DNA from: a virus | Taxonomy: Duplodnaviria > Heunggongvirae > Uroviricota > Caudoviricetes | Direction: 5' to 3' (one strand) | Length of the DNA: 51,038 nucleotides | IMG/VR virus record: IMGVR_UViG_2872180393_000001 | Shown here: positions 21,001 to 24,000 of the stretch, piece by piece | Layout: every line of letters begins with the position of its first letter | Position numbering within the stretch: position 1 is the first letter of the stretch | Program-made: the position numbers

Positions 21001-24000
21001 CTATTCACTGATTACTCCGATCACCCTCGCAAACTTGTCACGCTAAACCCAAAGCTCAAATCAACAGCAGCCGGACGTTACCAGCTTCTTTCCCGTTGGT
21101 GGGATGCATACCGTAAGCAGCTTGGGCTGAAAGACTTCTCTCCGAAAAGCCAGGACGCTGTTGCACTACAGCAGATTAAAGAGCGTGGCGCTTTACCGAT
21201 GATTGATCGCGGTGATATCCGTCAGGCAATCGACCGTTGCAGCAATATCTGGGCTTCATTGCCGGGCGCTGGTTATGGTCAGTTCGAGCATAAAGTTGAC
21301 AGCCTGATTGCAAAATTCAAAGAAGCAGGCGGAACGGTCAGAGAGATTGAGGTATGAGCAAAGTAACCGCGATTATCTCCGCTCTGGTTATCTGCATCAT
21401 CGTCTGCCTGTCATGGGCTGTTAATCATTACCGTGATAACGCCATTACCTACAAAGAGCAGCGCGATAAAAAAGTCAGTGAGCTGAAGCAGGCGACTGCC
21501 ACCATTACTGACATGCAGCAGCGCCAGCGTACTGCTGATGCACTTGATGCTAAATACACGAAGGAGTTAGCTGATGCGAAAGCTGAAAATGATGCTCTTC
21601 GGCGCAAGCTTGATAATGGTGGCAGGGTGCTCGTCAAAGGAAAATGCCCTGTGCCATCCTCAGCCGAAGCCTCCAGCGCCTCCGGCATGGGCAATGATGC
21701 CACCGTCGAACTCTCTCCAGTTGCTGGACGAAACGTTCTCGGTATCCGGGACGGAATTATCCGCGACCAAACAGCACTGAGAACGCTTCAGGAATACATC
21801 TGGACGCAATGCCTTCGATGATAGCGATAATTTTACTCATCATCCTTCACATCTGGCTCTGTAGACAGGGTGGTGATCACTTCTGGAGTGAATCCAGATT
21901 AAACATCTCATTGCTGATGCTTGATATTGAGCATCTGGCGCGCGGTAAGGGGCTGCGTTGAGATAAGAGCCAGTCATCACAAACACCAGGATTTAGCCTC
22001 GCATTTGCGGGGCTTTTTTACATCTGCAGTAAACCGCGCATCGCAGCGCGTAACAATCCCGAGTCTTTCAGAAAGCTGAGCCTGAGAACTGCCGTATATG
22101 GTGGCGACCATCTCGGGACGGCTTTTCTGTGCGAACAGGCTCAACTTTCTAAAGGAAATACCGACATGAACAAATCATTAACCGTTCTTCCTTCTGGCGA
22201 ATACCCGACCATGAGCAGTCTTGAGATGGTGGATTACATTAATGCTGATCGGAAATCCAAAGCGGAGGCGGAGGGGCTTGCGTTCCCCTGTAAGAAATAT
22301 CGCAAACTCGAACACCGCAGTTTCATGAAGAAAGTACCCAGGGTCCTCGGGGATGCAGCTGCAAAATTTTTTGCAACTGATACCTATATCAACGGAACAG
22401 GTGGTGTTGTGGAGAGGGATATTTGCAATTTTCCCAAGCGTGAAGCTTGCCTCATGGCAATGAGCTACAGCTATGAGCTTCAGGCGCAGGTGTATGACCA
22501 CATGACGGAGCTTGAGGGCGGGAAGGACATTAACCTCCTCGATTTCTCTGGCCTGACCGATATGGCAATCAGCGAAATGCAAAACCGTGTCGCGGCTGCT
22601 GAGAAGTTCTCATTTGAAATGCACGGTCAAGCAGGTAGCGCTCTCATGACTCGTCGGAAGAAAGAGAAGAAGGCCATTAAAAAGGCTGAGCAGCTTGTGA
22701 AGGATCTGATTCAGTTCAAGCTATGTGACATGGGGGATTTCCCTGATGGTAAACCAGCATGACTCCGATTGATTTCATACATAAAAATGTAACAACCGAG
22801 TTAATAAAGCTTGGGTACGACCAGAACGCGGCTATGACTGGCGCTGACATGGCGGTGGAGCATTACCGCCGTTGTTCACAAGCCAGCAGAAAAGGCCGAG
22901 TTTTCGATGACTGCCTGTACATTGCAAAACAGTGGGCAGGTAGGCAGAAAAGGGAAAAAATGACAACCTGAGAGCTACTTTCACAACGGCTCTTCATTAC
23001 AAAGCCTATCTACGGGTGGGCTTGATAATGGCTTATACCCTACACGGGATAACTTAACTGATATCCCTTTTAACGGATAAAGGTATTCAGGCCTGACACA
23101 TCATGCGCTGTATCGTCGCTGTATTCCCGCATTAACCATGACCGTAGCCCGACGGGGAACTCCTTCTGCGCGAGTGTGCGGGAATAATCAAAAACGATGC
23201 ACACCGGGTTTTTACCGCGTTTATGGTTCGCGGGTTTGTCCCTCATGCTCGCCAGTCCTGTGCGGGGGTGGAAGAAACAGGACACTTACACTGATTCTTG
23301 TGGGTACGATGCTATTCCTTTCTGGATTATCCCGATGTCATTCATGCAGGGCGCTGTATCAGACGTTCGTCATGGCTGTCAGGCTGACGGGTCCTCCCGG
23401 TGGGGTGGCCTGCCACGGGGCGGGAGCGGCGCAGAATTTCACTATTTATGAAAATTTTTCGGAAACCATGTCCGGTTTCTCTGAAGGTTAACCATTTGAA
23501 AAATATAGAAATGTGCTTTCTGTGAACCGGACATGCGCAAAAATTGAACACTCAAACCGGACATATATGCCGCGTTTCATAAAGTTGTTCGCAAGATGCA
23601 TGTTTAAAACGCATGAGGGGAGATTTTTTGGCGAGGTGAACAGTGGCTACTCAGACTGAAGTTGCCAGGCATTTGAGTCTGACCGATCGCCAGCTTCGCA
23701 GATTACAGAAACTGCCGGGTGCCCCGGTTTCGAACAAGCGAGGACAACTGGATCTGGATGAGGTAGCCTGAGTTTAACGGACACTCCTTCCTGAAATAGA
23801 ATGGCATCAGAAGGAGCTAATAATGAGCAGAAAAACCCAACGTTACTCTAAAGAGTTCAAAGCCGAAGCTGTCAGAACGGTTCTTGAAAATCAACTTTCG
23901 ATCAGTGAAGGCGCTTCCCGATTATCCCTTCCTGAAGGCACTTTAGGACAATGGGTTACCGCCGCCAGAAAAGGGCTCGGTACTCCTGGTTCCCGCACGG

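Follow-up and report, generated by a model that had tools for sequence, protein, structure and literature searches.

The rha gene was defined genetically in phages phi80 and P22 decades ago and is annotated in thousands of prophages. In both phages, rha is detrimental to lytic growth when integration host factor (IHF) is lacking (PMC4936722), and inhibition in IHF-deficient hosts is a phenotype known only for these two (PMC4936722; phi80 annotation). The gene is described as a suggested regulator (PMC8951638), and a literature search for a recent functional study of Rha returned nothing relevant. In P22, the gene after Rz/Rz1 is rha (orf201), whose product contains PF09669 and ORF11CD3; in phi80, Rz/Rz1 and a terminator are annotated ahead of rha, which bears the remark “DNA synthesis inhibition in IHF- hosts”. 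Here we compare these modules with a locus in the virus record IMGVR_UViG_2872180393_000001 (IMG/VR; Caudoviricetes), the whole 51,038-nucleotide stretch of which is referred to below as the window. The window is a lambdoid prophage in which S, R, and Rz/Rz1 are followed on the late-operon strand by two open reading frames (ORFs), ORF198 and ORF70. On balance, we favor the interpretation that these two genes belong to a mobile accessory cassette of lambdoid and P22-like phages, composed of a terminator, a 140-nt leader, the Rha-type ORF198, and the coupled ORF70, with late expression and leader-gated translation.

The gene pair lies in the rha slot

An earlier sequence-only reading of the window had reported two unknown, coupled genes on one strand between Rz and cos. 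Both ORFs are found as it described them, and the overlap that couples them is an ATGA. That reading overlooked the terminator and conserved leader upstream of the pair, a minus-strand ORF at 23070-23285, and the occurrence of the phi80 and P22 rha genes in the same slot. The cassette comprises the following elements:

21995..22019, plus strand: intrinsic terminator just after Rz, GC-rich hairpin AGCCTCGCATTTGCGGGGCT followed by T6
22029..22168, plus strand: structured RNA leader of 140 nt, ending at the ORF198 ATG
22035..22050, plus strand: hairpin P0, CGCGC, 6-nt loop, GCGCG, present in the minimum free energy (MFE) fold
22064..22088, plus strand: 5' strand of the long helix, with UCUUU complementary to the Shine-Dalgarno sequence (anti-SD) at 22064-68, AGAAAG at 22070-75, UGAGCCUG at 22077-84, and AGAA at 22085-88
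22091-95 with 22118-22, plus strand: inner helix of the MFE fold, GCCGU with ACGGC
22125..22156, plus strand: 3' strand of the long helix, with UUCU at 22125-28, CAGGCUCA at 22136-43, CUUUCU at 22145-50, and the Shine-Dalgarno (SD) sequence AAGGA at 22152-56
22166-22762, plus strand: ORF198, 198 aa, ATG start, a predicted divergent Rha-type protein
22759-22971, plus strand: ORF70, 70 aa, ATG start, in ATGA overlap with the ORF198 stop

The order Rz, terminator, rha-type gene is common to the window, phi80, and P22, and the same leader RNA is found in all three. Location in the late operon after the lysis genes, one of the marks by which Rha is recognized, applies to ORF198. In the isolated Erwinia phage Midgardsormr38, which also carries an ORF198-type and ORF70-type pair, the pair again follows Rz/Rz1 and sits at the genome end. 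Across 18 non-redundant loci from different genera, the genes upstream are holin, lysozyme, and Rz, and those downstream are small and large terminases of several unrelated types; in four loci a Rz gene lies downstream of the pair. The exact pair is rare in E. coli, being present in 18 of 5426 complete genomes, within prophages that have different lysis and packaging modules.

The terminator is the left edge of this mobile cassette. Its predicted hairpin (21995-22014) has 8 pairs, 6 of them G-C, in a consensus scan and a calculated stability of -12.2 kcal/mol, and it has the form of an intrinsic terminator. Homology to the cassette in other E. coli prophages begins at window position ~21995. 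The annotations of phi80 and epsilon34 label the corresponding feature a terminator, and a terminator-like hairpin is found 4-21 nt upstream in 23 of the 37 leader copies described below.

Both ORF198 and ORF70 are real genes under purifying selection. Compared with a close E. coli copy (96-99% identical), the ratio of nonsynonymous to synonymous substitution (dN/dS) is 0.13 for ORF198 and 0.24 for ORF70; compared with homologs from other genera, dN is 0.10-0.19 and 0.32-0.50, respectively, with dS saturated. A database search returned 1867 relatives of ORF198 at E<=1e-3 across Enterobacterales, while for ORF70 a word-indexed search gave 27 relatives and an exhaustive profile hidden Markov model search gave 96 cluster representatives at 50% identity. 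The earlier picture of coupled genes in an accessory slot that closes the lysis cassette and varies in content stands. Its description of the pair as unknown cargo does not, since ORF198 appears to be a divergent member of the Rha group, whose founding genes occupy the same slot behind the same terminator and leader.

The leader RNA is conserved by structure

The leader is predicted to fold with an MFE of -49 kcal/mol (z = -2.85). In this most stable fold, a long helix of ~21 bp buries the SD sequence, which lies 9 nt before the ATG and pairs with UCUUU to form the five outermost pairs. All distinct leaders examined have a paired SD in their MFE folds.

Conservation of the leader resides in its structure rather than its sequence. 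Paired changes appear when the ~150-nt interval from the terminator to the ATG is aligned across genera. A covariance model (R1) built from 27 sequences scores 133.5 bits at the window leader and detects 37 copies among the loci searched, 10 of which lie outside the training set, and each of the 37 finishes with the initial ATG of an ORF. In the alignment of these copies, the paired fraction of cells is 84.7%, and both partners vary at 31 of 38 pairs. Covariation scores 0.383, compared with 0.189 after shuffling (0 of 500 shuffles reach the observed value) and at most 0.113 when the partners are slid. In P0, which is helix 1, four of the five pairs change on both sides (75.7% of cells paired), and helices 2-4, which form the long helix, are paired in 96.2%, 87.5%, and 94.6% of cells. 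For the anti-SD:SD helix the paired fraction is 96%, and its columns 51/165 are split between UA (18) and AU (17). An ordinary MAFFT alignment yields compensatory changes in 9 of 12 RNAalifold pairs.

This leader RNA is apparently undescribed. Rfam 15 contains no family matching window positions 21700-23700 at E<=1 and, at gathering thresholds, returns nothing at the P22 or phi80 leaders, with P22 yielding sar RNA only. A literature search found no description of a rha leader.

By blastn, the leader occurs in 145 phage records, with nearly all copies located in unannotated, mostly intergenic DNA. It is carried by Stx2a/Stx1a phages and by phages of Salmonella, Klebsiella, Enterobacter, Hafnia, Pantoea, Providencia, and Actinobacillus, and is present in 916 of 5426 complete E. 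coli genomes (17%). The copies detected by R1 include those preceding P22 rha, phi80 rha (112.6 bits), Sf101 rha, and epsilon34 gene 68. The cargo behind the leader always comes from an antirepressor-type DNA-binding set, comprising pRha with ORF11CD3, pRha, KilA-N, T5orf172/MUG113, and the ORF198 type. Because these DNA-binding domains differ, autoregulation by the product seems unlikely, and a common host or phage trigger would be more plausible.

Some loci contain a second copy of the leader. In phi80, this copy (7235-7355 of the phi80 extract) precedes PHI80_66, which is similar to N15 gp59; in Symbiopectobacterium (extract 6846-6985) it precedes a KilA-N gene, and in Sodalis (extract 6777-6920) a pRha gene. 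Given these second copies before other cargo, leader-plus-gene cassettes can stack in tandem. In Klebsiella phage ST15-VIM1phi2.1 (extract 2001-2696), the leader and Rha cassette are not located after Rz and instead lie in an apparent virion/tail-gene region, preceded by a DUF3383 gene and another hypothetical gene and followed by an SLT transglycosylase gene, still inside a late operon.

The leader spans 39501-39646 in P22 (NC_002371) and 5641-5778 of the phi80 extract (JX871397). Inside it lie the GTG codons annotated as rha starts, at 39575 in P22 and 43739 in phi80, and the leader model ends at in-frame, SD-preceded ATGs at 39644 in P22 and 43775 in the phi80 record. Initiation at these ATGs would give proteins of 178 aa (not 201) in P22 and 172 aa (not 184) in phi80.

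ORF198 is related to phi80 Rha

Sequence comparisons place ORF198 as a probable divergent Rha-type protein and not as a PF09669 member in the strict sense. It shows homology to the founding member, phi80 Rha: residues 137-186 align with phi80 Rha 133-181 by BLASTP (E 8e-6, 36% identity), and in hhalign the family profile aligns with phi80 Rha over residues 74-176 (E 2.9e-5, probability 74%). The two C-termini have the motif G.GS.LM..RKKEK in common, which in ORF198 reads GS.LM.RRKKEKK and falls within a helical hairpin. Relatives of ORF198 are named “Rha family transcriptional regulator” in both RefSeq and UniRef. Searches of PHROGs with ORF198 return an N-terminal family without known function, “anti-repressor Ant” (5e-11), and “transcriptional regulator” (7e-11), the match to PHROG 63 “Ant” being confined to the N-domain region. 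In addition, PF09669 is matched below threshold in 10 of 24 aligned family members (25-27 bits versus a gathering score of 29.9, best E 6.7e-6); these matches come from relatives at 70-78% identity, and ORF198 does not itself reach the PF09669/TIGR02681 gathering score. The N-terminus had earlier been called weakly Rha/antirepressor-like, and the PHROG and PF09669 matches agree with that description. Of the profile and structure searches that the same reading proposed, the former tie ORF198 to the Rha group and the latter were uninformative.

An AlphaFold 2 (AF2) model of ORF198 (mean predicted local distance difference test score (pLDDT) 74.6) contains an alpha/beta, winged-helix-like N-domain at about residues 15-117, whose blocks have pLDDT values of 82-93, and a less confident C-terminal helical hairpin at about residues 127-187. 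The N-domain alone is found in Acinetobacter, Pseudomonas, and Burkholderiales with other C-termini, and in Pseudomonas and Polaromonas homologs it is fused to ANT/KilAC. This exchange of C-termini is domain shuffling typical of Rha, Bro, and KilA-N regulators. ORF198 contains neither ANT/KilAC (PF03374) nor AntA (PF08346), and its C-terminal 55 residues do not match ORF11CD3 (PF10549), with which it has only a short motif in common (GS.L...RKKEK versus SGRLLNRWGKIKK).

A similarity between ORF198 residues 117-146 (EGGKDINLLDFSGLTDMAISEMQNRVAAAE, the linker and first C-terminal helix) and PDB entry 8bny, “Immunity repressor protein” (DTSKQIKLFDLTGLTEASINQIQNQIDQLK), was not significant (E 0.26) and was set aside. 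RefSeq naming of the pair is inconsistent: in E. coli CFSAN029787 and FDAARGOS_943, ORF198 is a “hypothetical protein” or a “Rha family transcriptional regulator”, and ORF70 is often uncalled.

ORF70 is a small gene coupled to ORF198

ORF70 matches PHROG 4439, a family of unknown function (1.3e-34). Its AF2 model (pLDDT 82.9) consists of three helices and a basic tail, and conserved positions include F6, L15, G19, Y36, and the motif KG..FDDCL..AK. No Pfam family was found in any of 66 ORF70 family members, and no relative was found in the PDB. A PPR match in a search of solved-structure sequences was spurious. Ribosome modulation factor (RMF, PF04957) was likewise rejected, at 15 bits and E 0.027 against a threshold of 27.9, with 0 of 66 members matching and no RMF in the fold search.

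In most loci with an identity of 56% or more, the ORF198-type gene is directly followed by an ORF70 homolog, and the ATGA overlap is kept in most loci. By profile search, an ORF70-like gene follows two-domain ORF198 homologs, usually with the same 4-nt overlap. The pair occurs in at least nine genera, including Escherichia, Edwardsiella, Tatumella, Xenorhabdus, Photorhabdus, Symbiopectobacterium, Sodalis, Arsenophonus, and Pantoea. No ORF70-like gene follows the more distant ORF198-type genes or phi80 rha. ORF70 is an accessory of one sub-clade, probably acting as a partner or modulator of ORF198. A correlation between the ORF198 C-terminal tail and the presence of ORF70 was looked for, and no clean one emerged. 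Contigs of Candidatus Arsenophonus triatominarum contain more than 20 near-identical ORF198-type and ORF70-type pairs, presumably from many related prophages.

A second helix in the leader is incompatible with the first

The leader can also form an alternative helix, a:a', from two strands:

22057..22063, plus strand: strand a, UCCCGAG, pairing with 22112-22118
22112..22118, plus strand: strand a', CUCGGGA, in the innermost loop of the long-helix fold

Complementarity between a and a' is kept by at least 12 sequence variants. The best-helix score is 6.62 for cognate partners versus 4.34 for permuted partners (0 of 2000 permutations). On an alignment that was not fitted to a:a', in the register of most rows, the two strands pair in 75% of cells, with covariation of 0.36 versus 0.21 shuffled (0 of 500); in the window's own a:a' register, the alignment offset is two columns. 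Because strand a abuts the base of the long helix and strand a' lies ~30 bp away along it, a:a' is incompatible with the full long helix.

Two incompatible, covarying helices suggest a switch with two functional conformations. The choice between conformers could be made by kinetic control, by RNase III cleavage, or by another common factor, and a pseudoknot in which the anti-SD serves as linker is geometrically conceivable. Much more tentatively, and with more doubt than belief, we raise the possibility that the leader, with those of P22, phi80, and Stx2 phages, represents an undescribed class of cis-acting RNA switch. Such a switch would alternate between the SD-sequestering helix and an a:a' conformer, possibly pseudoknotted, and would be triggered by a specific signal (a host factor, RNase III, a small molecule, or the state of late transcription) to gate potentially toxic phage DNA-binding proteins (Rha, KilA-N, T5orf172); ORF198 and ORF70 would then form a two-protein late regulator whose target explains the Rha/IHF phenotype.

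Expression and a model for the cassette

Expression of the cassette looks late-operon dependent. A consensus scan found no sigma-70-like promoter between the terminator and the ORF198 ATG, and transcripts must start upstream of P0, because this hairpin, 16 nt after the T-run, covaries as RNA. Of the two modes of transcription that the sequence-only reading left to be distinguished, these features point to late-operon dependence and not to constitutive expression in the lysogen. Inspection by eye gave nothing convincing for an IHF consensus in the leader DNA. A candidate LexA box upstream, at CTGCCGTATATGGTGG, was rejected by eye, as its ACAG half is lacking.

In the model that we favor, only Q-modified polymerase from the late promoter would read through the terminator into the cassette, and the leader would keep ORF198 translation low and gated. 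Gating may be kinetic, with ribosomes loading before the inhibitory helix forms, or may depend on a shared trigger that acts in trans, for example RNase III cleavage. Such restraint would be required if too much of the products does harm; deregulated phi80 Rha stops phage DNA synthesis in hosts that lack IHF. Termination-reinitiation would tie the amount of ORF70 to that of ORF198, and ORF70 probably works with ORF198 or modulates it. By analogy with phi80 Rha, the target may concern DNA replication or repressor control.

Several observations weigh against parts of this model. MFE prediction for the full leader does not produce the a:a' helix, and folding of truncated leaders fails to give it for the 5' part in 32 of 34 sequences; forcing it costs 9-25 kcal/mol relative to the MFE. 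Because a:a' is absent from these folds, the kinetic-trap version of the switch lacks thermodynamic support. The alignment used to score covariation in the long helix was fitted to that structure. ORF198 itself has no Pfam or NCBIfam match even at E<=1, shows no detectable similarity to P22 Rha in pairwise or profile comparisons, and its family profile aligns weakly with a canonical Rha alignment of six sequences (E 0.014). Homology of the N-domain to pRha is suggested by sub-threshold and indirect matches, and structure searches found no convincing solved-structure relative of this domain. ORF70 is missing from many ORF198-type clades and is therefore not essential to Rha function. Finally, a weak promoter may exist near ORF198.

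The sequence-only reading had noted that the end of the late operon often carries defense genes, and the pair could in principle be anti-phage defense or superinfection-exclusion cargo expressed from the prophage. The slot is hypervariable and elsewhere holds KilA-N, T5orf172/GIY-YIG-like, and (as annotated) anti-CRISPR genes, and KilA-N-kind DNA-binding domains occur in prophage abortive-infection proteins such as BstA. Moreover, phi80 Rha gives an abortive-type infection in IHF-deficient hosts (annotation; PMC4936722). We nevertheless consider this explanation unlikely: PADLOC-DB 2.0 contains no defense family matching ORF198 or ORF70 at E<=1, and the strong terminator directly upstream, the lack of a promoter-like site, and the predicted sequestration of the SD in a stable fold argue for low, late-operon-dependent expression and against the constitutive lysogen expression on which a prophage defense gene depends. 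The cassette also occurs within structural operons (the Klebsiella phage tail region), which points to late lytic expression, and the defense suggestion is not borne out. A toxin-antitoxin-like arrangement, in which one product neutralizes the other, is very unlikely, even though the genes are small, overlapping, co-inherited, and under unusually tight translational control and the founding Rha is inhibitory when deregulated (phi80 annotation). Many ORF198-type genes, and phi80 rha as well, retain the leader without being followed by ORF70, and neither protein matches a toxin or antitoxin family; the ~3-fold faster evolution of ORF70, still under purifying selection, fits a modulator equally well.

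We give least credence to a role in lysis or DNA packaging, for example as a lysis-timing factor or a cos/pac-site helper. Such a role would fit the place between lysozyme/Rz and the small terminase, which is kept across many genera and in both cos and pac types, as well as the four loci with Rz downstream. The same leader, however, precedes unrelated DNA-binding cargo, the cassette is also found in a tail-gene region, and no such role is mentioned in the rha literature (PMC4936722, PMC8951638). Neither ORF has detectable homology to any known lysis or packaging protein, and on this point, which could have overturned it, the sequence-only reading holds. A different objection concerns the leader alone, which might be a stable mRNA 5' structure or a recombination linker with no switching, a:a' being incidental to repeated purine/pyrimidine motifs. 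The absence of a:a' from thermodynamic predictions, the several pairings permitted by repeated GAGAA/CAGAAAG and UUCU motifs, and mosaic boundaries that coincide with the terminator would all be accommodated by this explanation. We regard it as rather improbable, because nearly every helix shows compensatory changes, the anti-SD:SD helix included, the variable part of a:a' covaries between cognate partners in both the permutation and shuffling controls, and each of the 37 copies ends exactly at a start codon.

Neighboring features of the window

The genes flanking the cassette are as follows:

20574-20897, plus strand: holin S, upstream of the gene pair
20881-21357, plus strand: lysozyme R, upstream of the gene pair
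21354-21821, plus strand: Rz with embedded Rz1, upstream of the gene pair
from 23643: Nu1-type small-terminase ORF, split by IS600 (gene and insertion sequence span 23643-25419)

The interval from the pair to cos had been put at about 430 bp; the right end of the linear record for phage mEp460_4F5 aligns at ~23412, 441 bp past the ORF70 stop, in agreement with this estimate. The lambda cosN 12-mer was not found at up to 2 mismatches. The prophage is probably defective for packaging, because IS600 splits the Nu1-type small-terminase gene. The interrupting element, at about 23772-25000, is 99.8-99.9% identical to annotated IS600. The window contains four IS600-type orfB copies, the further ones (272 aa) being located at 6730-7548 (plus strand), 39226-40044 (minus strand), and 48997-49815 (minus strand), which suggests an IS-rich host of the enteroinvasive E. 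coli or Shigella kind.

The minus-strand ORF at 23070-23285, between ORF70 and cos, has the core CIVFDY..TL...LMREY.DDTAH, which is 68% identical to an ORF in the same place in a Stx2a phage (E 2e-13). FDAARGOS_943 lists it as a “hypothetical protein”; it matches no Pfam family, and is oriented like lambda bor yet unrelated to it. Between Rz and the terminator, a 50-aa plus-strand ORF (21809-21961) has a hydrophobic N-terminus and no Pfam match; its counterpart is a conserved hypothetical in the same place in P22-like phages (Sf6 gene 65 homolog).

Comparison with known systems

Our analysis places the window genes in the rha lineage as a new variant of the rha module, of which the leader RNA is the more interesting result. 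A common structured leader that occludes the ribosome-binding site of rha-slot genes provides a testable handle on how potentially harmful late genes are restrained, and by implication the start codons given for rha in the P22 and phi80 reference records are part of a non-coding RNA. Pfam has no model for the small protein family that ORF70 represents, and the genetic linkage of this family suggests that it serves Rha-type proteins as a partner.

The closest described system is phi80 Rha (PHI80_62, JX871397), the founding member of PF09669/TIGR02681, which has the same slot, order, strand, and leader as ORF198. The two proteins are of similar length (172-184 aa for phi80 Rha and 198 aa for ORF198) and have related C-terminal regions. 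They differ in that phi80 Rha matches PF09669 clearly, at 107 bits, whereas ORF198 has no match above threshold, and no gene resembling ORF70 follows phi80 rha. P22 Rha (orf201) and its relatives in Sf101, Stx2a, and Klebsiella phages (PF09669 with PF10549) likewise have the slot, terminator, and leader seen in the window, but their C-terminal domain belongs to a different family than that of ORF198, and they lack a coupled small ORF of the ORF70 family.

Two known kinds of RNA control resemble the leader in part. In the immI region of P1/P7 (c4 antisense RNA, icd, ant), an RNA occludes a ribosome-binding site and controls an antirepressor-type protein, and two coupled ORFs are present, as here. 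The c4 RNA is processed and acts in trans on icd, with the small ORF first, whereas the window has a cis element with the small ORF second, and its leader has no Rfam c4 match. In the MS2 maturation-protein leader and hok mRNA, an upstream sequence pairs with the SD at equilibrium, and a less stable competing pairing could delay the fold so that only the nascent RNA is translated. The window leader has no sequence or family relation to these systems, and MFE folds of truncated RNA do not support kinetic escape here.

As occupants of the interval between Rz and cos, lambda bor and other morons are non-essential, variable cargo in the same place as the window cassette. The bor gene lies on the opposite strand and is expressed in the lysogen from its own promoter. 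The window cassette, in contrast, is co-directional with the late operon, lies behind a terminator, and has no recognizable promoter.

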